Notes under the pieces: model-generated
Seen by the model: the letters and a program-made list of their open reading frames with translations, nothing else
Database searches by the model: none
What the model was told of the DNA's origin: nothing
Assembly: GCA_009392275.1 (NCBI GenBank)
Contig: VFGV01000011.1
Span: 78,895-142,894, forward strand
From: SAR202 cluster bacterium
GTDB lineage: Bacteria > Chloroflexota > Dehalococcoidia > Lucifugimonadales > UBA2962
Length of the DNA stretch: 64,000 nt
Direction: 5' to 3'
Position numbers and translations under genes: made by a program
Part shown: positions 535-61,554 of the stretch, in pieces
Position numbering within the stretch: position 1 is the first letter of the stretch
Layout of the letters: every line of letters starts with the position of its first letter

Positions 535-678
535 ATGTCTAAAAGAACTTACCAACCAAAAAATCGTCGTCGTATGAGAGTTCACGGATTTAGGTCCAGA
601 ATGAAAACTCGTGCAGGCCGAAACGTCCTCAAAAGACGCACCTTTAAAGGTCGTAAGCAGCTTACAGTTCAGGTATAG
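535..678 (+). CDS. rpmH: 50S ribosomal protein L34
   Basis: A 47-codon ORF absent from the track because it is under 60 aa. It reads [47 protein letters not shown], the canonical L34 sequence. It sits directly upstream of rnpA, as in most bacteria. Confidence 0.95.
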
Positions 679-710
679 ATTAATAGTAATTATCAATCTA
701 GCGTAATACA

Positions 711-1070: not shown

Positions 1071-1075
1071 ATACG

Positions 1076-1285
1076 ATGAAAAAGTTTACCCTGCTGATAA
1101 TAACGTTTTATCAGCAGCACATTTCTCCATATTTAGGGATTATGTGTAGGCATGAGCCAACATGCTCCAATTATGCATATCAAGCAATATTGAAACATGG
1201 TGTGATCACGGGTTCGCTTATGGCGGTTACTCGGCTATTTAACTGTCGTCCTTTTGGCAAAACCGGATATGATCCAGTGCCGTAA
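1076..1285 (+). CDS. yidD: membrane protein insertion efficiency factor YidD
   Basis: 69 aa. FYQQHISPYLGIMCRHEPTCSNYAYQAI matches the YidD signature (C-R-x-x-P-[TS]-CS-x-Y). Confidence 0.9.
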   Translation: MKKFTLLIITFYQQHISPYLGIMCRHEPTCSNYAYQAILKHGVITGSLMAVTRLFNCRPFGKTGYDPVP

Positions 1286-1307
1286 TTGAAAAAATGGATT
1301 TATACTT

Positions 1308-2483: not shown

Positions 2484-2504
2484 TGCTAAGCGAGGATATG
2501 TAGA

Positions 2505-3975: not shown

Positions 3976-3997
3976 TAATACTTGGAAAGGATTTCAC

Positions 3998-5504: not shown

Positions 5505-5506
5505 AA

Positions 5507-7045: not shown

Positions 7046-7067
7046 ATTAACTATTTTAATGAGATTA

Positions 7068-8327
7068 TCAGTCAATCTTGTCGAAACCTGTATATTTTCT
7101 TAAGACCTCCGGGATAATCACAGACCCATCGTCTTGCTGATAATTTTCGATTATTGCAATTAATATTCGTGGTATAGCCAACCCTGAGCCGTTTAAGGTG
7201 TGGGGATATATAGGTTTCGCTCCTAATTCTGGCCTATATCTTATGTTTGCTCGTCTTGATTGAAAATCATCGCAATTTGAACAACTACTAACTTCTAGCC
7301 ATTCTTGACTACCAGGAGCCCAAACTTCTAGGTCATAAGTTTTTACAGCGGAAAAACCCAAATCTCCTGCACAAAGCTCCACCAATCTATAGGTTAATTC
7401 TAACTCTCGTATAATTGTTGCTGCATCATCTACCAGTTTAAAAAGTTCTTGATCGGAGTCTAGAGGCCTAACGAATTTATACATTTCGACTTTATCAAAT
7501 TGATGCACCCTCTTAATGCCTCTAGTTTGACTTCCGGCAGCTGCTTTTTCTCTTCTAAAACAAGGTGTATGAGCAACAAATTGAGAGGGTATTTGGTCTG
7601 GGTTTAGTATTTCATCTCTAAACATACTAGTTATTGGAACTTCAGCCGTCGGTATTAACCACAAATCATCTTCTTGGTCGTGATACATAGTTTCACTAAA
7701 TTTTGGTAGATGTCCGCTTCCTGTGACGGTGTCGGTGTTCACTAAGTAAGGCAGATACAGTTCTTTGTAGCCATGCTTCTCGGTATGAGTATCTAGCATC
7801 CAGGATATTAGTGAACGTTGTAATTTTGCCAATTTATTATTAAGTACATAAAACCTTGATCCTGATATTTTTGCTGAGGCCGACAGGTCAATTAGCCCTA
7901 ATTTGTTTGAGATTTCCCAGTAAGAAGCAGGGTTTTTGATAGATTCAATAGAACTTTTTAGAGTGCGGACAATTTGATTTGATGACTCATCGGTACCGTC
8001 AGGGACGTTATTCCTAGGGATATTTGGTAATGTCAAAATTATGGTACGAATATCTTGTTGAGTAGTTTTGTATTCAGCCTCGAGTTGTTTCACTTTTTGG
8101 CCTAAGGCTTTCATTTGACTAATCAGTGTTTTACTAGGGTTTTTTTCAAGACCAATCTGGTGGCTAGATTTTTTCCTTTCAGATCTTAGATTATCTAATT
8201 CTTGTTGAATTGATTTACGTTTATTGTCTAATGAAACCAACTTATTAATAGGAGGCTCCTCCCCTCGTCGACGAATGGCATTTAGAACGTTTTCTGTGTC
8301 CGACTGGATAAGCTCTATGTTTAACAT
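7068..8327 (-). CDS. serS: seryl-tRNA synthetase
   Basis: N-terminal coiled-coil arm, then class II motifs (FRREKAAAGSQTRGIKRVHQFDKVE; TLNGSGLAIPRILIAIIENYQ). Confidence 0.95.
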   Translation of the reverse strand: MLNIELIQSDTENVLNAIRRRGEEPPINKLVSLDNKRKSIQQELDNLRSERKKSSHQIGLEKNPSKTLISQMKALGQKVKQLEAEYKTTQQDIRTIILTLPNIPRNNVPDGTDESSNQIVRTLKSSIESIKNPASYWEISNKLGLIDLSASAKISGSRFYVLNNKLAKLQRSLISWMLDTHTEKHGYKELYLPYLVNTDTVTGSGHLPKFSETMYHDQEDDLWLIPTAEVPITSMFRDEILNPDQIPSQFVAHTPCFRREKAAAGSQTRGIKRVHQFDKVEMYKFVRPLDSDQELFKLVDDAATIIRELELTYRLVELCAGDLGFSAVKTYDLEVWAPGSQEWLEVSSCSNCDDFQSRRANIRYRPELGAKPIYPHTLNGSGLAIPRILIAIIENYQQDDGSVIIPEVLRKYTGFDKID

Positions 8328-8343
8328 TTTGATTTAATCGAGT

Positions 8344-9501
8344 TCAACTTAACTCTTCTTGTAACCTTTTGAGTATTAAATGTTCGTCACCATCATCTAC
8401 AGTTTGTATTCGTATTATGAGTGAATTAGGAACGTTATCAGTTCTTAGATGGATGATTGGGTCGCCATTTTTAAGAACATTTTCTAATTCATCTGCTGAT
8501 AACTTACATGAATTTTTATCGATTATAAGCCTTAAGCCTTCGATCATGCCCTTGGACGGAAAGTCAGTTACCGTTATGCCTGGAAGACGTGCAATTTCAT
8601 CTCGAATCTTATTTAGTCTTATTTCATAGTTTGCCAAACGTGATTCATGGTCCATTTTAAGCCATTCTTCCAGTGCCACCAAAGTTCCTACTACCGTCTG
8701 GCGGTCCATTTTTATAGAGCGGCCGAAAACCCTAGTATTTTCATATTCGAAACCGACAAAGCTTAATCTATATGCAAGTCGCATTAGATGCTCATTGGCC
8801 CCTACTAGTAAGCCGCTAGTATTTAAACCTTCAAAATATTTTCCGCCGTATCCGACCAAATCAGCTCCATTTTGAGCATAGTGACTTAATCGATCCGTTG
8901 GATATACTTGACCAGCTGCATCTATTAATAAAGGCAAATTATTTCGATGTGCCAACTTCACTAGTTTGTTAAATGGGACAATATCATTTCTTTGTTCTCT
9001 TTCATGTGGATCATCATATAATCCTCCTGCCAGATAATGAATGCCAGCTGTGTTTTCGGTGATTGCTGCCTCAATATCTTTTTCTGTAGTGTTTTGTTCA
9101 TTGCCAACTTCGATTAATACTCCCCCAGGTACAGTTACAGCCTTGTCATAACTTACCCGCAACTGTTTTTGTATTATGAATTCATTCGGCAGCCCAGTTA
9201 CATCGGGTAATTTTTCAATATCATCTTCATTATTTCTTGTAATGCATGCAGCAGCCCCAAGTGAAAGAGCAGCTGAACAGCCTGGTGTGACCATGGCGAA
9301 AGGCACATTTAACATTTCTGCGATTCGGTCGCCCGAAACCTTAACTAATTCGCTCATTTTTACGTAGTCAAGAGAGGCATCTTCCATTGCCTGCTTTACT
9401 ATTACTGAAGGGTTATTGCCACCAATCGCAGTCGGGTGGCCATGGGCATTTATGACGGGCTTAATTCCTAAAGTTTTATATATTTTGCTCTGTCCAGCCA
9501 T
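8344..9501 (-). CDS. SelA-like / DgaE-like fold-type I PLP-dependent enzyme (lacks the SelA N-terminal tRNA-binding domain)
   Basis: PVINAHGHPTAIGGNNPS resembles the SelA core start (v-I-N-A-T-G-x-x-x-H-T-N-L-G). GADLVGYGGKYFEGLNTSGLLVG resembles the SelA PLP-lysine region (S-G-D-K-L-L-G-G-P-Q-A-G). At 385 aa it is about 80 aa shorter than authentic SelA. Confidence 0.65.
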   Translation of the reverse strand: MAGQSKIYKTLGIKPVINAHGHPTAIGGNNPSVIVKQAMEDASLDYVKMSELVKVSGDRIAEMLNVPFAMVTPGCSAALSLGAAACITRNNEDDIEKLPDVTGLPNEFIIQKQLRVSYDKAVTVPGGVLIEVGNEQNTTEKDIEAAITENTAGIHYLAGGLYDDPHEREQRNDIVPFNKLVKLAHRNNLPLLIDAAGQVYPTDRLSHYAQNGADLVGYGGKYFEGLNTSGLLVGANEHLMRLAYRLSFVGFEYENTRVFGRSIKMDRQTVVGTLVALEEWLKMDHESRLANYEIRLNKIRDEIARLPGITVTDFPSKGMIEGLRLIIDKNSCKLSADELENVLKNGDPIIHLRTDNVPNSLIIRIQTVDDGDEHLILKRLQEELS

Positions 9502-9525
9502 TTTTAATTTAACAACCTTTCTTTA

Positions 9526-10536
9526 TTATTGTGCAAATGCTTTTATAGCGTTTAAATAATCGACTTTTATGTTTTGGCTAACTCCGAAAGGGGCTAACAC
9601 AGGTAGGTCAAGGCCTAATGATCTGCGCTTGGCAATTTGATCATAACAATCAGCGGGACTGCCAACAAGAGCCACCTCCTTTTCCATATTTGATGATATC
9701 GATGCTATTGCGTTATCTATATCATTAGAATCTAAAGCAGATTCAGCCGAGGCCATTTCTTTTTCAAATCCACAGGAGATGAAGAAGCTTCGATAATTCG
9801 GGTGCCTAGAATATTGTGCGATTTCTTTTTTGAGTTTTGTTCGTGCGGCGTCAATATTTTTAGATCCTACATATGTTCTAATATAACCAGCTATATCTGG
9901 GTTCACTATATTACCTGCCGTCTTGTATGCCGATTTAAAAATTTTGACAAAATCTTGCAACTTGCTTACAGCAGTCCAGTTTAATAAAACACCATCAGAA
10001 ATTTGTCCGGAGATCTGAATCATTTTTGGTCTTAGAGCAGCAAGATATATCGGCACGCGCACATCTTTAGCTGCCAGCCCAAGTCTAGCATTATTAATCT
10101 GAAAATGTTCACCGTTAAAACTGAAGGATTGCCCTTTGAATAATTGTCTTATGATATTAACGGTTTCTTTGGTTCTGCCAACAGGATCATCAAATCTACC
10201 ACCATGAATTTTTTCTACCACTAGTCTATGTCCGATTCCCAATCCGAGTGAAAAACGATGGTTGGTCATTCTATCCAGGTTTGCTGCTGTCATGGCCATC
10301 GCAGTTGGGGTTCTTGAAAAAATCGGAAGTATTCCTGTGCCTAGTCGGATACTTTGTGTAATTGATGATAGGTATCCAATTAGAGAAATCGAGTCATACC
10401 CTCCGCCTTCTGGTATCCAGATTGACTCGAATCCAGCATTCTCCGCATTAATGACTATTTCTGTAATATCATCCATCGATAATCGTGGATCATTTTCGAT
10501 TCTCAGTCCAATACGATCTGTATTTAACGTGTTCAA
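9526..10536 (-). CDS. LLM-class (luciferase-like) flavin/F420-dependent oxidoreductase
   Basis: Luciferase-like TIM-barrel signatures: GFESIWIPEGGGYDS, RFSLGLGIGH, YLAALRPKM. Confidence 0.85.
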   Translation of the reverse strand: MNTLNTDRIGLRIENDPRLSMDDITEIVINAENAGFESIWIPEGGGYDSISLIGYLSSITQSIRLGTGILPIFSRTPTAMAMTAANLDRMTNHRFSLGLGIGHRLVVEKIHGGRFDDPVGRTKETVNIIRQLFKGQSFSFNGEHFQINNARLGLAAKDVRVPIYLAALRPKMIQISGQISDGVLLNWTAVSKLQDFVKIFKSAYKTAGNIVNPDIAGYIRTYVGSKNIDAARTKLKKEIAQYSRHPNYRSFFISCGFEKEMASAESALDSNDIDNAIASISSNMEKEVALVGSPADCYDQIAKRRSLGLDLPVLAPFGVSQNIKVDYLNAIKAFAQ

Positions 10537-10554
10537 TGTTTGAGTCCGATTTTA

Positions 10555-11082
10555 TTAATCAATTTTTTTAGCTATTGTCATCGTATTTATTCGACACATG
10601 AATTTAATTTCTGATTGTACATTGAATCCGGCTTTATTGATCATTTGCTTTAAATCACGCTGGTTAATCCCCCATAGCTCGTGTTCATGATGATCTCTTT
10701 CGATTTGATCTGGGTCAGAACCAGACCTAAGTCTGTGCCATAGAAAAGAAACCCGTGGAGGAATCATTGTGATTATTAATCTTCCATTAGGTGAGAGCAG
10801 TCTATATGATTCTATTAGCAGATCATCTCGGTTCGGAATATGATTTAATGCAGCAATGACTGTAATAGTATCAAAGCTAGAGTCTTCGAAAGGTATATTC
10901 GATGACTCATCGATGATTAAATCTACATCTCCCCAATCATAAATATCTACTCCAGTGCCATTACCATTATAAGATCTTACTAATTGATTATTACCGCAGC
11001 CAATATCTAATAGTCTTCCCGTGACATAAGGAAGAACAACTTTGACACGCCAATTTCTTAATAATGTCGTTAACGAATACAA
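10555..11082 (-). CDS. class I SAM-dependent methyltransferase
   Basis: SAM-binding motif I LLDIGCGNN. Methyltransf_11-like length and layout. Confidence 0.8.
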   Translation of the reverse strand: MYSLTTLLRNWRVKVVLPYVTGRLLDIGCGNNQLVRSYNGNGTGVDIYDWGDVDLIIDESSNIPFEDSSFDTITVIAALNHIPNRDDLLIESYRLLSPNGRLIITMIPPRVSFLWHRLRSGSDPDQIERDHHEHELWGINQRDLKQMINKAGFNVQSEIKFMCRINTMTIAKKID

Positions 11083-11363
11083 ACCAACCCACCTATTAAC
11101 AGCTTTTGAACTAATCTATCTTTAATTAATGTCAAATCATCGTATTTAGCAAATAGGCAGTTACAATGGGTTATCGTTACAGGCTAATAACATGTAGTTG
11201 CCTACTATAATTTTGCTTACTATTGATCGTATACTAAAAATTATCCAATTGTTTATAAAATAAAGCCCTATTATTTTCGAGGTTTGTGAAAACAATGTTT
11301 AGAAACACTCTAGTGTGATTTGTATTTTAATAATGTTAATAAATATCACTACATTTGACTTCA

Positions 11364-12818
11364 ATGATTAGACCTATTGTCTTGGCTGGAGGTTCTGGCA
11401 CAAGGCTGTGGCCTTTATCTCGTGAAGAGTTTCCAAAGCAATTTCTTAAATTAGCAACTGAACACACTATGTTTCAGGAAACAATACTGCGTTTAGACGG
11501 AATAACTAAAAACTGCAATAGCTTGTCTCCAATTATAATTTGCAATGAAAAGCATAGGTTTTTAATAAATCAGCAAGTCAAGGAAATAAATAAGTTACCA
11601 GGTGCGACGATACTTGAACCAACAGGGAAAAACACCGCACCAGCTTTAACTTTGGCTGCTCTTTGGTCATTGGAAAATGATCAAGATTCGACATTGCTCG
11701 CATTACCTGCCGATCAGCACATTGATAGATCACAAGTCTTTCACAAAGTAGTAGAAGAAGCAGAAAGCTTTGCTGATCAAGGATATTTCATAACGTTTGG
11801 CGTTCCTCCAACCTCTCCAGAGATTGGGTTTGGATATATAAAAACTGCTCCAATGTCCCCTGAACTTACTGAATGTCATAATGATGTTTTTCAAGTTGCT
11901 AAATTTGTAGAAAAACCTAGTTTAGAAATGGCTAAGAAGTACTTAGAATCCGGACAATATTTATGGAATAGTGGAATGTTCATGATGAAGGCCAGTGTTT
12001 GGATGGGATTAGTTAATGAATTTCGCCCGGATATTAGCAAGTTGTGTTCTGAAGCTTACGATAAAGGTTTAGTCGATGGTGAATTTTTCAGGCCAGATAG
12101 ATTAATTTTTGACGGCTGTCCATCAGAGTCAATTGACTATGCTATTGCTGAAAATATAGATGTAAATCGCGGAGATCCTTGTCCTATAGTTTTTGGATAC
12201 AACTCTGGCTGGTCTGATCTCGGGACCTGGACAGCAATCGGTAACAAGCTTACTTCTGATAATAAAAATAACGTTATAAAGGGTGACGTTTTGTCCGAGG
12301 ATGTTTCTAATTCAATAGTTATCTCGGATGGACGTTTATTAGTAGCGGTGGGCCTTGATAATGTTGTCATAGTGGAAACCGATGATGCAATATTAGTAAC
12401 TTCTAAAGAGCAAATTAATAATGTAGGTAAATTAGTTTCAAAAATCCGCTTAGCTGGACGTACTGAACACTCCAGACATCTAAAATCTCATAGACCTTGG
12501 GGAAGCTATCAGATTTTAGATAAAGGCAATGGATTCCAAGTGAAGCATTTAAGAATTAATCCCGGGCAGTCGATATCTTTACAGCGCCACAAGCATCGTG
12601 CAGAACACTGGGTTGTTGTTAAAGGAGTTGCAAATGTGGTAGTTGGGGATGAATCTTATGAATTATTGGAAAATCAATCGACCTATGTTCCTAAGGGTGT
12701 AAGTCATCGATTGTTTAATTCCAGTGAAGAGATATTAGAAATTGTTGAAGTGCAGTCGGGCGAAGTCATTGATGAAGAAGATATTGAACGTTTTGAAGAC
12801 AGTTACGGTCGAATTTGA
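11364..12818 (+). CDS. manC: mannose-1-phosphate guanylyltransferase / mannose-6-phosphate isomerase (bifunctional ManC/CpsB type)
   Basis: N-terminus IVLAGGSGTRLWPLSREEFPKQF (nucleotidyltransferase). C-terminal cupin: RPWGSY...LQRHKHRAEHWVVVKG. I prefer ATG 11364 over the in-frame TTG at 11355. Confidence 0.9.
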   Translation: MIRPIVLAGGSGTRLWPLSREEFPKQFLKLATEHTMFQETILRLDGITKNCNSLSPIIICNEKHRFLINQQVKEINKLPGATILEPTGKNTAPALTLAALWSLENDQDSTLLALPADQHIDRSQVFHKVVEEAESFADQGYFITFGVPPTSPEIGFGYIKTAPMSPELTECHNDVFQVAKFVEKPSLEMAKKYLESGQYLWNSGMFMMKASVWMGLVNEFRPDISKLCSEAYDKGLVDGEFFRPDRLIFDGCPSESIDYAIAENIDVNRGDPCPIVFGYNSGWSDLGTWTAIGNKLTSDNKNNVIKGDVLSEDVSNSIVISDGRLLVAVGLDNVVIVETDDAILVTSKEQINNVGKLVSKIRLAGRTEHSRHLKSHRPWGSYQILDKGNGFQVKHLRINPGQSISLQRHKHRAEHWVVVKGVANVVVGDESYELLENQSTYVPKGVSHRLFNSSEEILEIVEVQSGEVIDEEDIERFEDSYGRI

Positions 12819-24489: not shown

Positions 24490-25020
24490 TTGTCATCGGA
24501 TATAACGCCTAAAATAGACCCTACGCCAGATTCAGAAAAACAGGATCTCAAGGATCGTATAAATAAAGCTGTAACAACTCAAAAGAGACCGACCGTGACT
24601 GTGTTATCATCCCTACTATCGATTGAAGATGAATTGGGTTATATTCCTGACGAAGCGATATCTATCGTAGCTGAATATAACAATTCAACGATTAATGAAG
24701 TGTGGGGAGTAGCCTCATTTTATCCAAATTTTCGATTTGACCCTCCTTCCAAGAATACCGTTGAGGTATGCTGGGGACCGTCTTGTCATTTAGTTGGTGC
24801 AACAGATGTAATTAAGGCTGTTTTAGATGAATTAGAGCTTGATGGAGAAGGAGATACGATCGATAAAATTGCTACATTTAAGTTCAATACATGTTTGGGT
24901 GCTTGTCCTCAAGCACCCGTAATGAGTATAAATCATCGGATGTATGGAAAAATATCAGCTAAACAGGCTAAATCTCATATTTTAGAATTGAGAAAAAATA
25001 TAAATGGGTCTGACAAATGA
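24490..25020 (+). CDS. NuoE/HoxE-like thioredoxin-fold [2Fe-2S] subunit
   Basis: Cys pattern CWGPSCHLVG ... CLGACPQAPVM, characteristic of NuoE/24-kDa subunits. TTG start after AGGAG. Confidence 0.85.
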   Translation: MSSDITPKIDPTPDSEKQDLKDRINKAVTTQKRPTVTVLSSLLSIEDELGYIPDEAISIVAEYNNSTINEVWGVASFYPNFRFDPPSKNTVEVCWGPSCHLVGATDVIKAVLDELELDGEGDTIDKIATFKFNTCLGACPQAPVMSINHRMYGKISAKQAKSHILELRKNINGSDK

Positions 25021-26801
25021 GTTCATATGAGACACTAAAAGAATTAGCCGAATCTAGGTGGTCAGAACTTACAAAAGGCAGTGCTCCTTGGATAAAAATA
25101 GGTATGTCTATGTGTTGTGGACAAGCTTCGGGAGCATATGAAACGCTAGGCGAGATTAAAGAGGTGTTAAATTCATTAAGTATTGAGGCAAATGTCAGTG
25201 AAGTAGGATGTCTAGGTATTTGCTACGCATCTCCCGTCGTAGATATTTTGTTGCCTAATAAACATCGTGCTGTATACGGCAATGTAACTCCAGATTTAGT
25301 ACATGATTTGGTTGATAGATGTTTGGTTAAAGGGAAAATTCCAAAGAAAAATTTACTAGGAGTGGAAAATCTAGGAACCAATAATCTACAAGGTCTACCT
25401 GATTTCAATGAACTGCCTCAGATTAAACTTCAAAATCGCATCGCACTTCGAAATGCCGGTCATATTGATCCGAAAGATATATATCAGTACATAGCTCGTG
25501 GTGGATATTTGGGATTGAATAGAGCTTTAACTGATCTTAAACCCGAAGATGTAATTGAAGAGATTAAATCCTCTGGTTTAAGGGGACGTGGAGGAGCAGC
25601 GTTTCCAACTGGTGTGAAATGGAGCTTTATGACTAGAGGAGAGAAACCGAAGTATATTTTGTGCAATTGTGAAGAGGGTGACCCTGGAGCATTTAATGAC
25701 AAATCCATTTTAGAAAGTGACCCATACACGACTATTGAAGGTATGGCCATAGCTGCTTATGCTACTGGGTCCACAAATGGAATAATTTTTATAAGGCATG
25801 GCCATGATGGCCCAATTGATGCTACTGAAGATGCAATCAAGCAGGCATATGAAGTTGGTTTGTTAGGTAAAAACATACTTGGATCTGATTTTAGTTTTGA
25901 TTTAGAAGTGTCTTTGACAGGCGAGTCGTACGTAGCTGGTGAGGAAACGGCGCTTATGGAGGCTGTTGAAGGTAAAAGGTCAATGCCTAGAGCGAGGCCG
26001 CCTTTTCCGGCAGCTTATGGTGTATGGGGTCGTCCTAGTACTATTAATAACGTAAAGTCTCTTTCATATGCACCATCTATTCTTGAACATGGATCAGACT
26101 GGTTTTCATCCATCGGAGTAAACAAGAGTACCGGTACTGCCATTATTTGTCTCAGCGGTAACATAAAATATCCGGGCTTATATGAAGTTCCGATGGGACT
26201 AACAATTGGTGATGTAATCGATAATATTGGTGGTGGTGTTCCTAATGGCCGTAAACTAAAAATGTTACAAACGGGAGGACCTCTTGGAGGAGTTCTAAGC
26301 TCTGATTCTCTAGAAATACGTTTAGATTTTGATGAAATGAGAGAGGCTGGGGCTATACTAGGATCAGGCGGGATAATAGTTGCTGACGATCGAACATGTG
26401 CAGTCGATCTTACCAGAGTTCTTGTTGCTTTTTGTCAATTTGAATCATGTGGAAAATGTTTTCCTTGTCGCTTAGGAACTACTAATTTGTTAGAAATTGT
26501 TGAACGTATGTCATCTAATAAAGCTAGACTAGGTGATGTTGAATTAATGAAGCAAATTGGTCAAACAATGCAAGCAGGATCTCTTTGTGGGCATGGACAA
26601 TTAGGATTCAACCCAATCGAATCAGCAATGAAGCATTTTAAAGAAGACTGGAGCGCTTGTGTTGATGAAGGAAAGTGCCTCACTGGGTCATGCAATAAAC
26701 CGCATTTCACTCCAATAAATACAAGACCATTTGCAGAGGCTCCTATCAAAAACACAGTTCCCATTCAAATTGCAAATCAAGTTGGAGAAAAAAATGAGTG
26801 A
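25017..26801 (+). CDS. NuoF/HoxF-like NAD(H)-binding FMN flavoprotein subunit with an extra N-terminal [2Fe-2S]-like domain
   Basis: GLRGRGGAAFPTGVKW (FMN/NADH site), CNCEEGDPGAFNDK, ESCGKCFPCRLGT (N3 [4Fe-4S]). The N-terminal 100 aa carry CCGQ...CLGIC. ATGA overlap with the upstream gene. Confidence 0.9.
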   Translation: MSSYETLKELAESRWSELTKGSAPWIKIGMSMCCGQASGAYETLGEIKEVLNSLSIEANVSEVGCLGICYASPVVDILLPNKHRAVYGNVTPDLVHDLVDRCLVKGKIPKKNLLGVENLGTNNLQGLPDFNELPQIKLQNRIALRNAGHIDPKDIYQYIARGGYLGLNRALTDLKPEDVIEEIKSSGLRGRGGAAFPTGVKWSFMTRGEKPKYILCNCEEGDPGAFNDKSILESDPYTTIEGMAIAAYATGSTNGIIFIRHGHDGPIDATEDAIKQAYEVGLLGKNILGSDFSFDLEVSLTGESYVAGEETALMEAVEGKRSMPRARPPFPAAYGVWGRPSTINNVKSLSYAPSILEHGSDWFSSIGVNKSTGTAIICLSGNIKYPGLYEVPMGLTIGDVIDNIGGGVPNGRKLKMLQTGGPLGGVLSSDSLEIRLDFDEMREAGAILGSGGIIVADDRTCAVDLTRVLVAFCQFESCGKCFPCRLGTTNLLEIVERMSSNKARLGDVELMKQIGQTMQAGSLCGHGQLGFNPIESAMKHFKEDWSACVDEGKCLTGSCNKPHFTPINTRPFAEAPIKNTVPIQIANQVGEKNE

Positions 26802-29547
26802 AGATCTAGTTATCAATATTGATGGTAAAGAGATTAGAGCTAAACCTGGACAAATGATTCTTCAGGCAGCAATGGAAGCGGGAGTTTATATTCCATATCT
26901 ATGTTATTACCCGGGTACAAAGCCTTTCGGAGCGTGTCGTATGTGTGTGGTTTCAGTTGATGGTGTCAGGGGTACTCCAGCATCGTGCACAACGCCAGTT
27001 AGCCCAGATATGATTGTAAAAACTGACACACCTGAAATTGTCGAACTTCGAAGAGGTATAATGGATTTGCTATTGTCTGAACATCCACATGGATGTTTAA
27101 CATGTCATAGGATTGAGTTATGTGGACCAGCAGATGTATGTTTGCGCCATGTATCGGTAAATGATCGTTGCGTGACATGCCCGAAGAACGAGAGATGTGA
27201 ATTAAAAGATACTGTTCGCTGGTTAGAGATGGATATGGAGACTCCTCTTACATACCAGAATAGGCAAATACCTTTAAAGGCAGCTGACCCATTTTGGGAT
27301 ATGGACATGAATTTATGTATTGTTTGTGGACGATGTGTCAGAGTATGCGATGAGATTAGAGGTGATAGTGCATTAACATTTTTAAATCGAGCAGGTAAGA
27401 CTGTAATTGGAACTTCTCAAGGAACCTCATTGCTCGAGTCGGGATGCGAGTTTTGTGGAGCATGTATTGATGCCTGTCCTACTGGAGCATTAGTTGAACG
27501 GGATTATAAATGGGATAAGGCGATAAAAACTGTTGAATCAGTCTGCCCTCACTGTCCCGTTGGTTGCACCATGAAGCTCGAAATCAATAAGCGAGACAAG
27601 CTTATTCGTGCAATTCCAGATAGCCAGTCTTCAGTTAATAGAGGCCAGTCTTGTTACAAAGGAAAGTTTGGAAACAATTTTGTTAATAGTAAAAAACGAA
27701 TAACAGCTCCAATGATTAGAAGTGAGGGAGAATTAAAAGAAGTGGGTTGGAATGAAGCAATTTCGACTGTTGCTGAAAAAATAAATGATTACAGAAATAA
27801 TGATAAATATTATTTATTGTTATCTTCAAGGTCAACAAATGAAGAAGCTTTTGTTGCGCAAAAGTTTGGACGTAGTGTTATGGGTACCAATAACGTAAAT
27901 GTGTCCTCTAATATTAGACCGGAATTGGTTGAATATTTAGGCCAGATGCTCGGTACATATGCGGGAACAAATTCTATCTGGGACCTCGAAAAGTCCCAAT
28001 CGATTTTGGTGGTTTCAGCGAATATGACTGAACAGCATAATGTGGCGGCATTGCCAATAAAACATGCAGTTAAAAATGGATCTGATCTTATTGTTATAGA
28101 TCAACGGGAAACTGAATTGACAAAAATCGCATCTATTTGGTTAAGACCTAAGCCAAACACCGAATCTGTTCTTATTGGAGCAATGCTAAAGGTTATTATT
28201 GATGAAACTTTAGATGACCATCATTTTATAAACGAAAAGACAGTCAACTCTGAGGATATGCGAAAATCTGTAGTCGCATTCGATATTATTAAAGCTGAGA
28301 GCATAACTGGAATATCTGCAGATGAGATAAGGAAGACAGCTCGTATTATTGCAAAGTCCAAACCGCTATCCATACTTTATGGATTGGAAACAATTAATGA
28401 GCAAACTAGGGCTGATTGCGTCAAGGCTCTTATAAATCTATCAATGGCTACAGGAAATATAGGAATTCACGGTGGTGGATTATACCCATTATTGAACGGA
28501 GCTAACGAGCAGGGCGCTAAGGATGCAGGTTGCATTCCTGACAAGCTGCCTGGATATCTAAGTTTAGATGATGAGAAACAAATATCAGAATATGAAAAAA
28601 TGGCTGCTTATTCAATTCCAAAAACTCCAGGCTTATCTATAAATGAAATGACCGAAGCAGTTAAATCTGGAGGATTAAAAGCTTTACATGTAATCGGTGA
28701 TAGCCCTTCATTAGTTAATGGTGAATTAGCAAAACTAGTAAATTCTATAGATAAACTTGAATTATTGATTGTACATGCTTCTTTAGAAAACGAACTCACA
28801 GCAAAAGCGGATATCGTTTTTCCAGCGGAAACGTTTGCTGAAACAGAGGGGACGTACACTAATTTAGAGCGAAGGGTGCAAATATTAAATTCGGCTATAG
28901 GTGCGAAAGGCTATCAAACACCGAGTTGGACAGTTTTGAGTCAAATAGCGAACGAGTTAAGTGTAAAAGGTTTTGAGTATCAGACTTCGATGCAAGTATT
29001 TGATGAACTTAGGCGTCAAGTTGTACCTTACAAAGGTATTTCATATGAAAAATTACGAAATACATCAGGTATACAATGGCCATGTTCGCACAACGAATCT
29101 GAAGGCATCTCAACTTTACATGCCGAGGAAAACACTAATTCTACAATGATCAAATTTAAAAGCATAAAGTTAAATATACCTGCTAATTTAAACAATACTG
29201 AGGGACGATTGTTTTTAGCCGAGGGTCGTGTGTTATTACAGTCCGAACGCAAATTTCAACTTGTGACAAATAATAAAAGAAATGAAATATCACGTGAAGA
29301 AATCCTTGAAATCAACCCATTGGATGCAAAAGGGCTAGATCTTAAAGATGGAGATCTTGTTGAGCTTGAAGGTGATGAAATAAAATTAAAGTTGAAGGTT
29401 CACATTAATGGCATTCAGCAGGGACTAGTGGCAACCACTGAACTATTTGGTTCCTATGCGGGACGCCTCGATTTAACCTCTGATCCAGACCCTGTGTTAA
29501 GCGCGAAGAACCTATCTTTAATTCCTGTTAAATTAAAAACCATATAA
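26794..29547 (+). CDS. NuoG / formate-dehydrogenase-alpha-like Fe-S plus molybdopterin-fold subunit with a degenerate FDH active-site motif
   Basis: N-terminal [2Fe-2S] (CYYPG...CRMC). His-ligated cluster HPHGCLTCHRIELC. CIVCGRCVRVC and CEFCGACIDACP. MopB-domain cluster CPHCPVGCTMKL. Start taken at ATG 26794 (GGAG 6 nt upstream, 8-nt overlap with nuoF-like) rather than the track's 26731. Confidence 0.85.
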   Translation: MSEDLVINIDGKEIRAKPGQMILQAAMEAGVYIPYLCYYPGTKPFGACRMCVVSVDGVRGTPASCTTPVSPDMIVKTDTPEIVELRRGIMDLLLSEHPHGCLTCHRIELCGPADVCLRHVSVNDRCVTCPKNERCELKDTVRWLEMDMETPLTYQNRQIPLKAADPFWDMDMNLCIVCGRCVRVCDEIRGDSALTFLNRAGKTVIGTSQGTSLLESGCEFCGACIDACPTGALVERDYKWDKAIKTVESVCPHCPVGCTMKLEINKRDKLIRAIPDSQSSVNRGQSCYKGKFGNNFVNSKKRITAPMIRSEGELKEVGWNEAISTVAEKINDYRNNDKYYLLLSSRSTNEEAFVAQKFGRSVMGTNNVNVSSNIRPELVEYLGQMLGTYAGTNSIWDLEKSQSILVVSANMTEQHNVAALPIKHAVKNGSDLIVIDQRETELTKIASIWLRPKPNTESVLIGAMLKVIIDETLDDHHFINEKTVNSEDMRKSVVAFDIIKAESITGISADEIRKTARIIAKSKPLSILYGLETINEQTRADCVKALINLSMATGNIGIHGGGLYPLLNGANEQGAKDAGCIPDKLPGYLSLDDEKQISEYEKMAAYSIPKTPGLSINEMTEAVKSGGLKALHVIGDSPSLVNGELAKLVNSIDKLELLIVHASLENELTAKADIVFPAETFAETEGTYTNLERRVQILNSAIGAKGYQTPSWTVLSQIANELSVKGFEYQTSMQVFDELRRQVVPYKGISYEKLRNTSGIQWPCSHNESEGISTLHAEENTNSTMIKFKSIKLNIPANLNNTEGRLFLAEGRVLLQSERKFQLVTNNKRNEISREEILEINPLDAKGLDLKDGDLVELEGDEIKLKLKVHINGIQQGLVATTELFGSYAGRLDLTSDPDPVLSAKNLSLIPVKLKTI

Positions 29548-46172: not shown

Positions 46173-47096
46173 TTGTTAATTAGAATTGAGTCTGCCTTTA
46201 ATCTGGAATCAACATTGGATAGTGGTCAGGCATTTCGATGGAAAAATCGAGGTGACTATTTTGAAGGCGTGGTAGACCAATCTATTATTCTCCTAAAACA
46301 AGTTGCCGACGGACTGGAATTTGAATCTTTTCCTAAAGCTGAAAAAGAGATTGAGTCTAAGCTGAAGTATTATCTGTCTTTGCATGATGATTTGGAAATT
46401 ATATTGAAATCAATTGCTGTAGATCAAAACATCCAATCGTATATTGATCAATACAAAGGTATGAGAATCTTGAAACAAGATCCTTGGGAATGTCTAATTT
46501 CATTCATATGCTCCTCTAATTCTAATGTGTCGAGGGTCAAGCAAAATGTTGAAGATATGTCTGCAGCTTACGGAGAAAAGATTGAAGCTTTTGGAAGCAT
46601 AAGACACACTTTTCCCTCCCCGCAACAATTGGAAAATGCCAGTATCCCTATTCTTAGACAGCTTAAGCTCGGTTATAGAGCAGAGTATATCTATGAAGCT
46701 GTAAAATTGGTCTCACAACATGTAATCAACCCATGGTCATTATTAGAAGAACCTTATGAAGAAGCCCTAATGACCCTAACTAAGATACCTGGTATTGGGG
46801 ATAAAGTCGCGAATTGCATAATGTTGTTTTCTATGGGTAAGGATGACGCTTTTCCTGTCGATGTTTGGATTGATCGAATTATTAAAGAACTTTATCCTGA
46901 AGAACTAGATGATTATATTCAAAGAAAATATTCAAATCAGTTGGCAAATAAAAAGAGAACTAAAAATAGGCTCAAAACACCTTCGGTGAATAGAATGATT
47001 ATAAAAGATTGGGCTAGGGAATATTTTGGGGATTATGCTGGATGGGCTAATCATTACATGTTTCACGAGAGACGTAAAAGATTACTGCGCAGTTAA
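46173..47096 (+). CDS. ogg: 8-oxoguanine DNA glycosylase, OGG1 type (OGG_N + HhH-GPD)
   Basis: LDSGQAFRW (OGG_N). HhH-GPD block IPGIGDKVANCIMLFSMGKDDAFPVDVW. TTG start. Confidence 0.8.
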   Translation: MLIRIESAFNLESTLDSGQAFRWKNRGDYFEGVVDQSIILLKQVADGLEFESFPKAEKEIESKLKYYLSLHDDLEIILKSIAVDQNIQSYIDQYKGMRILKQDPWECLISFICSSNSNVSRVKQNVEDMSAAYGEKIEAFGSIRHTFPSPQQLENASIPILRQLKLGYRAEYIYEAVKLVSQHVINPWSLLEEPYEEALMTLTKIPGIGDKVANCIMLFSMGKDDAFPVDVWIDRIIKELYPEELDDYIQRKYSNQLANKKRTKNRLKTPSVNRMIIKDWAREYFGDYAGWANHYMFHERRKRLLRS

Positions 47097-47843
47097 AGCT
47101 CCATCTATAGATAGACACGAACCGGTGACATATGATGATGCATCAGACCATAAAAATGTAACTAATCCAGCAATACTTTCTGGAGTTCCTAATTGTTTGA
47201 TTGGGTGAAAATCTCGTGCTTTTTTCCACGCTTCAGAATTTTTACCATATGTTTGATTGAACATAGGAGTTTCCACACCGCCAGGACAAACGGCATTTAT
47301 GCGGATTCCTTTATCGGCGTAGTCTAAAGCAGCGCTTTTTGTCAGTCCGTTCAAACCATGTTTATTAGCAGTGTAAGTAGTAAAACCTTTTGTGCCAATT
47401 AACCCATTTGCAGAGGACATATTGACAATGCTTCCGCCACCTTTAGATAACATATGTTGAATTTCATGCTTCATGCATAAAAATGGCGCAGTTAAATTTA
47501 CTGACATCATATGATTCCAAATATCAGAATCGATTTCGTGTATAGGTAATTGTGGTCCGCCTGTGGCTGAGTTATTACAAGCCAAATCAACTTCGCCGTA
47601 TTTTTCTATCGTTTTTTCAAACAAACTGTCAATTTGTTTCGGATCTGACATGTCTGCCTTTATGAAAAACGCCTCTCCGCCCTTACTTAAAATGTAATCA
47701 ACTGTTTCTTTGCCAGTTTTTTCGTCTCGCGCTCCTATTACAATTTTTGCTCCTTCACTGGCCGCTCTAATTGAAATTGCTTTTCCAATTCCAGAGTTGC
47801 CACCAGTTATCAACGCTACTTTATTTTTTAATAATTCTGTCAC
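47082..47843 (-). CDS. short-chain dehydrogenase/reductase (SDR)
   Basis: ALITGGNSGIGKA, NNSA, and the catalytic Y-x-x-x-K (YTANKHG). Confidence 0.9.
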   Translation of the reverse strand: MTELLKNKVALITGGNSGIGKAISIRAASEGAKIVIGARDEKTGKETVDYILSKGGEAFFIKADMSDPKQIDSLFEKTIEKYGEVDLACNNSATGGPQLPIHEIDSDIWNHMMSVNLTAPFLCMKHEIQHMLSKGGGSIVNMSSANGLIGTKGFTTYTANKHGLNGLTKSAALDYADKGIRINAVCPGGVETPMFNQTYGKNSEAWKKARDFHPIKQLGTPESIAGLVTFLWSDASSYVTGSCLSIDGALTAQ

Positions 47844-47897
47844 TGTTTTCTCTTGTGTTTTAATTTTAGATAAATTGTTACATTAATTAGCTTTTCA

Positions 47898-48662
47898 TCA
47901 TCGAGCGAGCATTCCTGCATCTACTGGCATAGTAGCCCCGTGTACGAAAGAAGCATCCTTTGTACATAGCCATACAACCATCTCCGCAACTTCTTCCGCT
48001 GTGCCATATCTTTTCATCGGCACGGTTGACTTCCATTCTTCATATAATTCTGGATGATCATCCCAAAATGGTTGGTTGATTTGTGTATCAATGATGCCTG
48101 GAGCTACAGAATTAATTCGAATTCCTTTGGCACCATATTCAAGTGCAGCGCTCTGTGTAAAGCCAACAACTGCGTGTTTACTTGCCACATATATAGATAA
48201 ACCAGCACCTCCAACCAGACCTGCTTGTGAAGCGGTATTTACGATACAGCCGCCTTGTTGCTCCAACATTATTGGAATTTCATATTTCATACATAACCAG
48301 ACACCTTTAGAGTTTATGTTCATAACTTTGTCATAATCCTCTTCTGTGCATTGATCTATTGGTTTATCAAACAATCCAATGCCGGCGTTATTAAATGCAA
48401 AATCTAATTGATTATGGGACTTGATGATCTGCTCCATTAGTGCTTTTACCTCTGATCCGTCTGACACGTCAGCACGAATAAAATGAGCCGAACCGCCATT
48501 TCCTATAATCTTGGATACTGTTTTATTTCCGGAGATTTCATTGACATCAGAACAGATTACTTTTGCTCCTTTTGCCGCAAACTTTATTGCACTTGCACTG
48601 CCAATACCGTTTGCTGCGCCGGTTACTAATGCGACTTTTCCAGAAAATTCTTTATCTTCCAA
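47898..48662 (-). CDS. short-chain dehydrogenase/reductase (SDR)
   Basis: ALVTGAANGIGSA, NNAG, and the catalytic YVASKHA. Confidence 0.9.
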   Translation of the reverse strand: MEDKEFSGKVALVTGAANGIGSASAIKFAAKGAKVICSDVNEISGNKTVSKIIGNGGSAHFIRADVSDGSEVKALMEQIIKSHNQLDFAFNNAGIGLFDKPIDQCTEEDYDKVMNINSKGVWLCMKYEIPIMLEQQGGCIVNTASQAGLVGGAGLSIYVASKHAVVGFTQSAALEYGAKGIRINSVAPGIIDTQINQPFWDDHPELYEEWKSTVPMKRYGTAEEVAEMVVWLCTKDASFVHGATMPVDAGMLAR

Positions 48663-48703
48663 ATTTTTACCTTTCCATCCATCTTTATCTGCTAATGAGC
48701 TAT

Positions 48704-48976
48704 TTATCCCTTTCCAGTAAATAACTCTGATCTGATCTGGTCAACTAATATTGACTCTTCGGGAAATTCCCCTGTTTCTAGCTTTGAATACATCAATTTA
48801 TCGCCAACAGAAACTTCGAAAGCTCCACCGTCAGCTGGAATTAACGAAATTCCACTTATATCCCATGAACATAAGTTCATTAGTTGCTTGGACAGGCTAA
48901 CTGCCTGTGGAACATAATCTCAGGGTACACAGTATTTAATACTAATTAGTGGTCTTGATTTTATATCGCCTAACAT
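48704..48976 (-). CDS. SelW/SelT/SelH (Rdx) family selenoprotein with an in-frame UGA (Sec) at codon 19; not in the ORF track
   Basis: ATG at 48976 with GGAG 7 nt upstream. Reading through TGA (48920-48922) gives MLGDIKSRPLISIKYCVPUDYVPQAVSLSKQLMNLCSWDISGISLIPADGGAFEVSVGDKLMYSKLETGEFPEESILVDQIRSELFTGKG*. This matches the Rdx pattern YC-x-x-[C/U] ... P-x-x-GG-x-FEV ... G-x-FPE. The frame stays open for 71 codons after the TGA. Confidence 0.85.
48892..48908 (-). promoter_or_regulatory. candidate bacterial SECIS hairpin
   Basis: On the mRNA: UGA, 11 nt, then ACAGGC-AGUUA-GCCUGU (6-bp perfect stem, 5-nt loop containing GU). The loop G is about 22 nt from the UGA. A possible lower stem (UU/AA) follows a 2x2 internal loop. 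Confidence 0.6.
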
Positions 48977-49053
48977 AAATTTCTCCTGAAGCTTGTATCT
49001 CGAATACTTATTTAATATCAAATTTCTGTAAGTTTAAAATCACACCAGTATAC

Positions 49054-50040
49054 TTACAAGAGAGCTTTAACAAGTTTCGTGAATCTTTCCATCTTATATA
49101 GAGTTTCATCTATATCTGTTCCTTTGTAGTCCAGTGTTAAATAACTGACTCCAATTTCTGCAAGGTTATATATGTCTTCTGCAACTTGCGAGGGTTCGCC
49201 AGTCAACAATTTCCTATTTCCATTTTCATCAAATATTGGATCCGTATCCGAATACCACATTTCAGCGCTTAGAGCGATACCTATTTTATTAATATCTCGA
49301 TCAGCCTCATCTAACTTACAGTTCAATTTTTCAATGCCATTTTTTAGACGGTCTATCGTGTCTAGTGGATATTGTGGATTGTTTCCAAAAGGGTACCAAA
49401 CATCTCCATAATTTGCGGCTCTCCTAATCGCAGCCGGACTCTCTCCGCCAATCCAAATGGGAGGATAAGGCTTTTGGATAGGTTTGGGTGCAAAGTATAT
49501 GTCTGAAAAAGAGACATATTCGCCTTTGAATGTAGGGTTTGGACTGGTCCATAGTTCTCTGAAAGCATCGATATATTCGTTAGTTACAGAGCCACGTTTT
49601 TTAAAAGTATCTAGCCCGAGCGCCTCGAATTCTTCTTCCATCCATCCAGCACCACAACCCACAATTAACCGGCCGTTAGAAAGGACGTCGATTGTGGCCA
49701 ATATCTTCGCTGTCAGAACTGGCTGGCGATATGGCAATATACATACCGAGCTTAAGAGGTTAATTTTATTTGTATTAGCGGCTAAATAAGACAGCGTCGT
49801 AAGTTGTTCGAAATGTAATCCAAGATCATCTTCACCTTGGTTTTCTTTACTCGACCATTCTCCCAGGAAAGCTCCCGAGTCACTGTATGGGTAGCTTGAT
49901 TGAATTGATCTTGGGATAACTAGATGGTCACCTATATGTAAATAATCAAAACCTATTTGTTCCCCGTGTCTCGCTACTCGGGCTAAACTGTCGGGACCCG
50001 CAAAAACACCAGATGTAGGGACTTCGAAACCGAATTTCAA
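49054..50040 (-). CDS. LLM-class F420/flavin-dependent oxidoreductase (Rv2161c-like subgroup)
   Basis: FDYLHIGDHLVIP, GRLIVGCGAGWMEEEFEALG, PPIWIGGESPAAIRRAANYGDVWYP. TTG start overlaps the stop of the upstream paralog (TTGA). Confidence 0.85.
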   Translation of the reverse strand: MKFGFEVPTSGVFAGPDSLARVARHGEQIGFDYLHIGDHLVIPRSIQSSYPYSDSGAFLGEWSSKENQGEDDLGLHFEQLTTLSYLAANTNKINLLSSVCILPYRQPVLTAKILATIDVLSNGRLIVGCGAGWMEEEFEALGLDTFKKRGSVTNEYIDAFRELWTSPNPTFKGEYVSFSDIYFAPKPIQKPYPPIWIGGESPAAIRRAANYGDVWYPFGNNPQYPLDTIDRLKNGIEKLNCKLDEADRDINKIGIALSAEMWYSDTDPIFDENGNRKLLTGEPSQVAEDIYNLAEIGVSYLTLDYKGTDIDETLYKMERFTKLVKALL

Positions 50041-51014
50041 TTCATCACCTGCGAAATTATTTCTGTGTAAAATGCATCCATTCGTTCTTTAGATTCTCCT
50101 GTTGATGAAGAAAGCAGATCAAACCCAAGTACATCAATTAAAAGATAATCAACGCCTACCTCTTTAAGCTGGTCAATGTCAGATGCTATTTGATTAAAGC
50201 TGCCGGTCAAAATAGTTCTGTCACCATCCTGAGTTATATGAGCTTTTGTTTCATCGTACCAGCTAGCGGCATATGCTAGTGATATGCTTTCAGGATCTCT
50301 GCCAGATTCATCAGCATTTTGTTTAACTTTCTCAAAGTAACTGTAAAGCTTTTCTGGTTTTTGTAATCTGTATTTTGGATTATTACCTATTGGATACCAA
50401 ACATCAGCATACCTGCCAGCTCTCCGTAAGGCAGCAGGACTTTCTCCACCGGTCCATATTGGCGGGTGTGGTTTTTGCGTTGGTTTTGGTTCGAAAGATA
50501 TATTGTCAAAAGAGACATGATGACCTTGAAAGTCTGGATTATTCGATGTCCACATTTCCTTAAATGCTGAAATGTACTCATCGGTAACACGACCTCTTAA
50601 TTCGTATGTATTTAACCCCAGTGCTTTGAACTCCTCTTCCATCCATCCTGCGCCAAGACCTACTAGTAATCTGCCTTTTGAAAGCACGTCAATGGTCGCT
50701 AATACTTTGCCTGCATGTATAGCTGATCTATACGGTGTCACCATAACACTTGTTAAAAGTTGTGCTTTAGATGTTGCTCCAGCAATGAAGGCAAGGGTTG
50801 TTAATTGTTCTAAGCAGTCTCCAACAAATTCGCCTCCGGGAAATTCACCGGAGTCTGTATATGGGTAAGTTGATGATATATTCCGGGGCACAACTACATG
50901 ATCTGACACAGCCATAAAATCAAACCCTAAAGATTCACCTTGACTGGCAAGGTTGATAAGCCCTTCTCTGGTTGAGAGAGGACCTCTGTTAGGGAGTACA
51001 AAACCAAATTTCAT
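50037..51014 (-). CDS. LLM-class F420/flavin-dependent oxidoreductase (tandem paralog of 49054-50040)
   Basis: Collinear with its neighbour throughout: FDFMAVSDHVVVP, GRLLVGLGAGWMEEEFKALG, PPIWTGGESPAALRRAGRYADVWYP. Confidence 0.85.
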   Translation of the reverse strand: MKFGFVLPNRGPLSTREGLINLASQGESLGFDFMAVSDHVVVPRNISSTYPYTDSGEFPGGEFVGDCLEQLTTLAFIAGATSKAQLLTSVMVTPYRSAIHAGKVLATIDVLSKGRLLVGLGAGWMEEEFKALGLNTYELRGRVTDEYISAFKEMWTSNNPDFQGHHVSFDNISFEPKPTQKPHPPIWTGGESPAALRRAGRYADVWYPIGNNPKYRLQKPEKLYSYFEKVKQNADESGRDPESISLAYAASWYDETKAHITQDGDRTILTGSFNQIASDIDQLKEVGVDYLLIDVLGFDLLSSSTGESKERMDAFYTEIISQVMN

Positions 51015-57960: not shown

Positions 57961-58231
57961 GTGGCTGCGCACCCACAGTCGACCTCTTCGATTGCACTTA
58001 AATTAATAGATCGACTCAAGTCAGGCGATCCCACGGCACCCGAAATGACTTACTTACCGCTGCTTCCTTCCGGACCTGACGGGGTTAGGTAAGCTTTCGT
58101 CGCGTAGGACCCAACTTTCAACATCGAACCAAAAAAACATTGGTGAATCAAATTGACCTTCATAGGGAATTCAGTCTCGCTGTAGCGGATTGCGAGTATA
58201 GGGCACCGCTAGCTCCCCACCTAGCACAGCC
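57961..58231 (-). ncRNA. ffs: signal recognition particle RNA, long Bacillus-type (Alu domain plus S domain), about 271 nt
   Basis: The minus strand reads GGCUGUGCUAGGUGGGGAGCUAGCGGUGCCCUAUACUCGCAAUCCGCUACAGCGAGA..., closely parallel to the 5' Alu domain of B. subtilis scRNA. It also carries the universal domain IV core GUCAGGUCCGGAAGGAAGCAGCGGUAAG. The 5' GGCUGUGC pairs with the 3' GCGCAGCC. A possible promoter on the minus strand is TTGCAT, 18 nt, TAAGAT (58267-58238). Confidence 0.9.
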
Positions 58232-61279: not shown

Positions 61280-61411
61280 ATGAGCGATACAATAAACAAA
61301 ACAGGGACGAGGTTAATTTGCATTTCATGTGGCGCAGAGTTCGTTGTTACTCGAGCAGGAAATGGTGAATTGACTTGTTGTGAGACTCCACTAGATGTGA
61401 AGGAAAAATAA
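61280..61411 (+). CDS. desulforedoxin-like small protein (43 aa, Cys4 metal site)
   Basis: MSDTINKTGTRLICISCGAEFVVTRAGNGELTCCETPLDVKEK*. C-x2-C-G-x14-C-C has the same spacing as D. gigas desulforedoxin and the Dfx N-domain (C-x2-C-x15-C-C). No clear Shine-Dalgarno sequence. Absent from the track (under 60 aa). Confidence 0.6.
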   Translation: MSDTINKTGTRLICISCGAEFVVTRAGNGELTCCETPLDVKEK

Positions 61412-61554
61412 TGGCTACTCAGCTTGGAAAGAGATACAGGTCAATTGAAACAGGGGCTACATTATTATGTGTAAAGCCTGGAAAAGGTGATCTGAAATGC
61501 AATGGTAACAAGATGGTAGTCCAAGAGCCTAAACGGTTACCATCATCTGATTAA
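61411..61554 (+). CDS. degenerate desulforedoxin-fold paralog (47 aa), translationally coupled to 61280-61411
   Basis: MATQLGKRYRSIETGATLLCVKPGKGDLKCNGNKMVVQEPKRLPSSD*. It aligns position-for-position with the upstream ORF, but CxxC is replaced by SxxT and CC by CN. TAATG stop/start overlap. GAAGGAAA Shine-Dalgarno-like sequence inside the upstream ORF. Confidence 0.45.
   Translation: MATQLGKRYRSIETGATLLCVKPGKGDLKCNGNKMVVQEPKRLPSSD

Follow-up and report, generated by a model that had tools for sequence, protein, structure and literature searches.

A gap between two oxidoreductase genes in this SAR202 DNA very probably holds a functional 90-residue SelW-like gene of the Rdx family, which decodes an in-frame TGA as selenocysteine (Sec). 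The window (the whole 64-kb stretch of DNA that was analysed) has a GC content of about 38%, and its DNA is 90-95% identical to contigs of SAR202-cluster and Dehalococcoidia metagenome-assembled genomes (MAGs) and to marine metagenome contigs.

Layout of the gene

The gap is 391 nt long and runs from the end of a short-chain dehydrogenase (SDR) ORF at 48662 to the start of a luciferase-like monooxygenase (LLM) ORF at 49054. The following elements were located in it, the Shine-Dalgarno-like sequence, the start codon and the true stop codon being read directly from the letters:

48983..48987, minus strand: Shine-Dalgarno-like AGGAG, with a 6-nt spacer to the ATG
48974..48976, minus strand: start codon ATG, supported by loci L012/L013 and L015
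48704..48976, minus strand: predicted SelW-like (Rdx family) selenoprotein CDS, read through, 90 codons including Sec19
48920..48931, minus strand: predicted CxxU redox motif, TGT (Cys16) GTA CCC TGA (Sec19), aligning with YCTQC of 2FA8, 2OBK and 2OJL
48920..48922, minus strand: in-frame TGA, read as selenocysteine, TGA in 23/23 related loci
48704..48706, minus strand: true stop codon TAA

Eighteen sense codons (MLGDIKSRPLISIKYCVP) run from the ATG at 48976 to the in-frame TGA at 48922-48920, after which the frame stays open for 71 more codons to the TAA. Read through, the minus-strand translation is MLGDIKSRPLISIKYCVPUDYVPQAVSL...ETGEFPEE...TGKG. The position of the start is supported by related loci: ATG and GTG alternate there in L012/L013, and in L015 a stop codon abuts the start on its 5' side. 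In the six-frame ORF list the gap holds fragments only, namely a 33-aa ORF that ends at the TGA and a 58-aa ORF (48704-48880) that opens at an internal ATG at 48880.

The first-pass annotation had proposed a hidden gene here, and its coordinates and counts for the ATG, the 18 codons, the TGA, the 71 codons, the TAA and the gap all proved exact on re-reading. It had also predicted that standard gene callers would leave the region empty or call a truncated fragment. Both outcomes occur: four public contigs with an identical LLM protein show an uncalled gap, and homologues in the protein database are mostly truncated at the N-terminus. The word hidden is literally true, since the deposited calls on these four contigs leave the gap empty.

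The read-through product matches the Rdx family across the TGA

With U replaced by C, the read-through product matched the Rdx profile PF10262 at 66.1 bits (cutoff 22.6, E = 3.3e-18). The match covers residues 11-82 and profile positions 2-73 of 74, and thus spans the TGA. The broader profile TIGR02174 (CXXU_selWTH; SelT/SelW/SelH family) was matched at 57.3 bits against a cutoff of 34.2. The equivalog profile NF041051 (SelTWH_Campy) scored 65.1 bits, below its cutoff of 88. By these profile scores the gene is a member of the broad Rdx family and lies outside the Campylobacter-type equivalog.

A phmmer search against the sequences of the PDB returned the bacterial Cys-form Rdx proteins 2FA8, 2OBK, 2OJL, 3DEX, 2P0G and 2OKA with E values from 6e-11 to 1e-7, the best match being 2FA8 (E = 6e-11). 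In the alignments the segment I-K-Y-C-V-P-U of the product pairs with I-R-Y-C-T-Q-C of 2FA8, and the second Cys of YCTQC in 2FA8, 2OBK and 2OJL aligns exactly with the TGA codon. The earlier reading, an Rdx protein with the TGA falling on the second redox residue, is borne out on both counts: the translation scores above the cutoffs of both family profiles, and the TGA coincides with the Cys that closes the CxxC motif of solved Cys-forms.

The solved Cys-form proteins (Atu0228, 2FA8; 2OBK; 2OJL; 2P0G; 2OKA; 3DEX) can be aligned with the product over residues 6-89 and share with it the Rdx domain, the position of the YCxxC/U motif and the conserved GG-x-FE and G-x-FPE segments. They differ in that Cys takes the place of the Sec predicted for the window gene (TGA) and in having no SECIS. 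Judging from homology to the solved structures over residues 6-83, the product would adopt the thioredoxin-like Rdx fold.

The TGA is kept in related loci

We compared the Sec codon among related loci whose protein identity to the window product ranged from 99% down to 40%. All 23 loci that cover the position keep TGA, and none carries a Cys codon. These loci come from SAR202/Dehalococcoidia, Rhodopirellula and another Planctomycetota MAG, Verrucomicrobiales, an unclassified MAG and Alteribacillus persepolensis DSM 21632, so that TGA-bearing loci are found in at least four phyla. The assemblies that carry the gene include PAAV01 (Chloroflexota NAT137), JAKUTS01 (SAR202 ALOHA_A2.5_113), DBZU01 (UBA1152) and GCA_036687695.1 (JAYYZT01). 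An alignment of orthologs had been suggested as a check on whether Cys codons replace the TGA and whether the downstream part is conserved. No locus stops at the TGA without downstream conservation, none has Cys, and the frame is kept on both sides.

A separate observation concerns the Verrucomicrobiales-type loci (L008 10001-10210, L009 319-528 and L020-L024), where each SelW-like gene has two in-frame TGAs. These loci read M-E-I-S-I-L-Y-TGA-G-M-TGA-N-Y, giving UxxU instead of CxxU. At least three distinct sequences share this UxxU form, and the one hairpin lies after the second TGA. The reviews consulted (PMC13188914, PMC2398784) describe SelW-like proteins only as CxxU proteins with one Sec, and the two-Sec form may be undescribed.

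A candidate SECIS hairpin follows the TGA

48892..48908, minus strand: candidate bacterial SECIS minihelix ACAGGC-AGUUA-GCCUGU, 11 nt after the UGA

The first-pass annotation had described this hairpin, with its loop G about 22 nt from the UGA, as having the geometry of a bacterial SECIS, and it is present in exactly that form. A 6-bp stem (ACAGGC/GCCUGU) carries a 5-nt loop (AGUUA) at -8.4 kcal/mol, and the loop G is nucleotide 22 when the U of the UGA is taken as 1. The region folds in the predicted way, at -15.4 kcal/mol over 61 nt, with z = -2.7 relative to dinucleotide shuffles. As a chance rate, 2.2% of the 2,514 TGA trinucleotides in the window have a comparable hairpin 16-37 nt downstream (a stem of at least 6 bp and a loop of 3-7 nt that contains a G).

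The minimal SECIS of E. coli fdhF is a 17-nt upper stem-loop located 11 nt after the UGA, in which loop nucleotides G23 and U24 contact SelB. The window element resembles it in being a 17-nt minihelix with an 11-nt spacer and G22/U23 in the apical loop. It differs in its stem, which has no bulged U and a different sequence.

According to the published consensus (PMC13188914, Fig. 2 legend), a bacterial SECIS has a loop of 3-9 nt on an upper stem of 4-16 bp and folds with a minimum free energy no higher than -7.5 kcal/mol. A G stands at loop position 1 or 2, mostly with G or U after it, and the loop lies 16-37 nt from the UGA (PMC13188914). The window hairpin lies within every one of these limits, with a loop of 5 nt, a stem of 6 bp, G-U at loop positions 2-3 and a UGA-to-loop distance of 17 nt, and the geometry claimed for it holds in full.

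Among close SAR202 relatives the hairpin is identical, and the only change seen within SAR202 is an A-to-G substitution in L003, which preserves the pair as G-U. Loci of other lineages have a hairpin at the equivalent place in which the loop G-U is invariant, for example CUGCC-AGUUU-GGCAG, CCGUG-AGUCU-CACGG and GGCCGUC-GGUCU-GACGGCC. The inner 4 bp are paired in 8/8 of these other-lineage hairpins, and three pairs show compensatory double changes. For the eight other-lineage sequences in one common register, a set to which the window lineage does not belong, the covariation score was 0.29 versus 0.17 in shuffles; 4/500 shuffles reached 0.29, and slid controls were all far lower.

In a homology-based alignment the hairpin of the window lineage (the window itself and L003) sits 4 nt further upstream in the codon register. 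This shift holds relative to every other lineage, the 82%-identical L015 among them, and the stem sequence of the window hairpin differs from the other-lineage stems. Both registers are coded in the conserved peptide segment P-Q-A-V/A-S-L and are mutually exclusive. The window lineage may have re-created its SECIS hairpin 4 nt upstream, which may be a clean natural case of a SECIS that turned over while its sequence also had to encode a conserved peptide.

A covariance model of the eight other-lineage hairpins, run on the window with filters off, did not recover the window hairpin at E <= 10. This result says little, because the model is 21 nt long and is dominated by the GCCGUC stem sequence. 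Rfam gave no SECIS-type match, either for the whole window at the gathering threshold or for 48650-49050 at E <= 10; the lone match in this search was to a miRNA model and is spurious. Bacterial SECIS sequences have been reported to be too diverse for one model (PMC13188914). The assignment of the window hairpin as a candidate SECIS is based on its geometry and its conservation in SAR202, including the change in L003, and not on homology to the other hairpins.

Selenocysteine machinery and decoding of the UGA

The 64-kb window, about 12 kb of sequence past its ends and the SAR202 loci examined yielded no selA, selB, selD or tRNA-Sec. A tblastn search with the Alteribacillus SelA, SelB and SelD against all loci collected returned only LepA, weakly, and a protein search with SelA gave only Bacillales among the 120 matches listed. 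A scan of the window and its right flank for TGA-interrupted ORFs yielded no second convincing selenoprotein candidate.

Two genes of the window were considered as part of a selenium trait and rejected. The ORF at 8344-9501 (minus strand), a 385-aa PLP enzyme that directly adjoins serS (seryl-tRNA synthetase, 7068-8327, minus strand), is the only SelA-like ORF of the window; it scores 176 bits with TIGR01437, below the cutoff, and 25 bits with SelA, far below the SelA cutoff, and is a lyase of the DgaE/selA_rel type. The XdhC-family gene at the end of the window was considered as YqeB (selenium-dependent molybdenum hydroxylase trait) and is of the generic XdhC/AOR maturation type.

In the cultured bacterium Alteribacillus persepolensis DSM 21632 (locus L005; NZ_FNDK01000001.1, locus positions 1-12000), the ortholog lies among the following genes:

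2111-2207: tRNA-Sec (selC), ARAGORN, anticodon TCA
2345-4255: selB, TIGR00475, 335 bits
8829-9803: selD, TIGR00476, 373 bits, with its own in-frame TGA in SKAG-U-GCKIG
10001-10213: TGA-containing SelW-like ortholog
10314-11738: selA, TIGR00474, 554 bits

The SelW-like ortholog is placed between selD and selA, and selB and tRNA-Sec are about 6-8 kb away. Its position inside the sel cluster is strong genomic evidence that the TGA of the SelW-like family is decoded as Sec. We infer insertion of Sec in the SAR202 host, as well as sel genes in that host.

The UGA could instead be read by a near-cognate Trp or Cys tRNA in an organism without sel genes, producing a CxxW or CxxC protein, and the sel genes were indeed not located in the window, its flanks of about 12 kb or the SAR202 loci examined. 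However, SelB-dependent decoding has a signature, namely a TGA strictly kept from phylum to phylum and a conserved G-U-loop hairpin spaced like a SECIS, and the Alteribacillus ortholog is embedded in a sel cluster. Had Cys been intended, a few of the 23 loci should show TGY, and Trp at the redox position would be non-functional. We therefore give near-cognate reading a very small probability and retain decoding as Sec.

Purifying selection on both sides of the TGA

We estimated pN/pS from seven distinct SAR202-type alleles. On the 5' side of the TGA (17 codons, not counting the start codon) the value was 0.24, and on the 3' side it was 0.11, which indicates that purifying selection acts in one frame on both sides. 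The codons for Y-C-V-P vary synonymously between alleles (TAC TGT GTA CCC versus TAT TGC GTG CCT) next to an invariant TGA. Because pN/pS is low on both sides and the changes in Y-C-V-P are synonymous, the two halves are translated as one protein.

This bears on the reading that the downstream part alone is the gene. According to it, the frame stops at the TGA, the 18 upstream codons are a leader or non-coding, and translation from the ATG at 48880 gives a 58-residue Rdx fragment that lacks the redox motif. Most homologues are called in this way, as truncated proteins of 54-73 residues, and the 58-aa ORF 48704-48880 is in the ORF list. Yet purifying selection acts on the 18 upstream codons in the frame of the downstream part, with many synonymous changes; strand beta-1 and the first Cys of the Rdx motif are encoded there, and the alignment with the solved structures begins at residue 6. 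The internal ATG has no Shine-Dalgarno-like sequence, and a fragment without CxxU would have no redox centre. With the halves translated as one protein, a gene confined to the downstream ORF is very unlikely indeed.

A pseudogene, that is, a Cys-form Rdx gene killed by a nonsense mutation from TGY to TGA, would need one base change from TGT or TGC, but it is excluded by the joint translation of the halves and effectively refuted by TGA in 23/23 loci at 40%-99% protein identity with intact frames and low pN/pS on both sides.

Homologues in the protein database and the genetic code

The protein database contains 25 close homologues. Four of them (P0001, P0002, P0003 and P0007) read YCVPWDY, with Trp at the Sec position, and the other entries are truncated at the N-terminus. 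For P0002, the only one of the four entries checked in DNA, contig L015 shows TGA at the W codon. The gene caller therefore evidently read TGA as Trp under table 4. Short contigs were apparently called with genetic code 4, and the Trp-for-Sec entries look like a systematic mis-annotation of selenoproteins in metagenome protein catalogues. The truncated calls have 54-73 residues and start at the equivalent of ATG 48880 or further up- or downstream. One truncated ortholog, P0019, is already named "putative selenoprotein, Rdx family [Chloroflexi bacterium]" in GenBank.

As a side observation, the first 43 residues of P0007 (85 aa) are identical to the window protein and are followed by a sharp divergence (…GIQLIPGTQGAFEITFDGDLIYSKKQTGEFPSNE…). 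Recombination between alleles could explain this entry, and so could a chimeric assembly.

The four ENA-derived entries with W at the codon might be taken to mean that TGA is a sense codon in this genome (Trp in table 4, or Gly in table 25), but TGA ends 15/47 long ORFs of the window, the neighbouring SDR and LLM genes included, and the window genes are long uninterrupted ORFs under table 11; TGA is therefore not a general sense codon, and an alternative code is effectively refuted.

Neighbourhood and possible function

The SelW-like gene lies between two pairs of co-oriented oxidoreductase genes:

49054..51014, minus strand: two luciferase-like monooxygenase (LLM) genes, upstream, PF00296
49054-50040, minus strand: the LLM gene nearest the SelW-like gene
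47082..48662, minus strand: two short-chain dehydrogenase (SDR) genes, downstream, PF13561 and PF00106
47898-48662, minus strand: the SDR gene nearest the SelW-like gene

No terminator-like site was found between the LLM, SelW-like and SDR genes, and the best promoter-like site on the minus strand is upstream of the first LLM gene. The gene order is kept in L001-L003, L010-L014 and L025-L028, down to about 78% DNA identity. From this arrangement, the LLM, SelW-like and SDR genes are probably operon partners and co-transcribed. In distant lineages no recurring neighbour was found (the genes there are DUF1552, an esterase and DUF1802/aminotransferase). Since these neighbours are unrelated, the association is SAR202-specific and says little about the function of the family.

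In the UBA1152 relative (L003), an extra 379-aa ORF (10303-11442) separates the SelW-like gene from the first SDR gene. On our reading of its sequence, it is Zn-dependent alcohol dehydrogenase-like and enlarges the oxidoreductase cluster.

We propose the following mechanism. Translation would begin at the ATG at 48976, and the ribosome would pass the UGA at 48922-48920 with the hairpin 11 nt downstream serving as a bacterial SECIS. The hairpin would recruit SelB-GTP and Sec-tRNA(Sec), selenocysteine would be inserted as residue 19, and translation would then run on to the TAA at 48704. By homology, the product should be a small thioredoxin-fold oxidoreductase cycling a Cys16-Sec19 selenenylsulfide, whose Cys16-x-x-Sec19 centre would alternate between the selenol/thiol and selenenylsulfide states. 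The gene is probably co-transcribed with the two LLM and two SDR oxidoreductase genes.

A more specific idea is that the SelW-like protein of pelagic SAR202 is a dedicated redox partner of the co-oriented LLM and SDR paralogs, in the order LLM-LLM-SelW-(ADH)-SDR-SDR. We regard this as improbable. If it were true, selenium would be tied to the proposed oxidation of recalcitrant dissolved organic matter by SAR202.

Other features of the window

Several features lie outside the SelW-like region. A NADH-dehydrogenase-like/formate-dehydrogenase-like cluster (24490-29547, plus strand) ends in a gene for a 938-aa molybdopterin oxidoreductase, which has no in-frame TGA. A full-length SRP RNA of the large (Bacillus) type was identified at 57965-58229 on the minus strand (174 bits). 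At 61280-61411 (plus strand), a 43-aa ORF with the pattern CxxC...CC weakly matches the desulforedoxin FeS4 domain. It is followed in tandem by a 47-aa ORF (61411-61554, plus strand) that has no family match and looks like a degenerate paralog lacking most of the Cys residues. Both of these ORFs are called as genes on Logan contigs.

Place among known selenoproteins

Mammalian SELENOW and its Rdx relatives SelT, SelH and SelV belong to the Rdx fold family and have the CxxU redox motif. Eukaryotic selenoprotein genes carry their SECIS in the 3'-UTR and use it with SBP2 and eEFSec. The window gene has the Rdx family and the predicted CxxU in common with these proteins; it differs in that its candidate element sits inside the coding region right after the UGA, in the bacterial style.

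Its closest known counterparts are the bacterial SelW-like CxxU selenoproteins (PF10262, former PF05169; TIGR02174), with which it shares the family, the position of the motif, a single predicted Sec and a candidate SECIS after the UGA. Bacterial SelW-like CxxU selenoproteins are known from genomes and from the Sargasso Sea, with 48 unique sequences (PMC1088965). They are the most abundant prokaryotic selenoprotein family in marine samples, with 427 Sec versus 56 Cys forms in GOS (PMC2398784), and very few Cys homologues of them have been found (PMC1794560). In a 2026 review the grade given to the prokaryotic SelW-like family is only 'predicted with high confidence' (PMC13188914). The window gene likewise comes from the sea and has few relatives of the Cys form, and the difference is that the hairpin of the window lineage is 4 nt further upstream than in the sampled lineages. 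In the searchable literature, SAR202 and selenocysteine appear together in indirect mentions only, and SAR202 Chloroflexota are not discussed as Sec users.

The window gene is a typical member of a known family. Its absence from the deposited calls is an everyday gap in annotation rather than a discovery, because the family is the commonest selenoprotein family in the ocean, and knowledge of selenoproteins, SECIS elements and the Rdx family is unchanged by it. The value of the finding lies in annotation. Gene callers omit the gene, truncate it or give Trp under the wrong code, and all three outcomes are present in public databases. The corrected call gives an abundant deep-ocean clade one more selenoprotein, with the implication that SAR202 has a need for selenium and the machinery for Sec.
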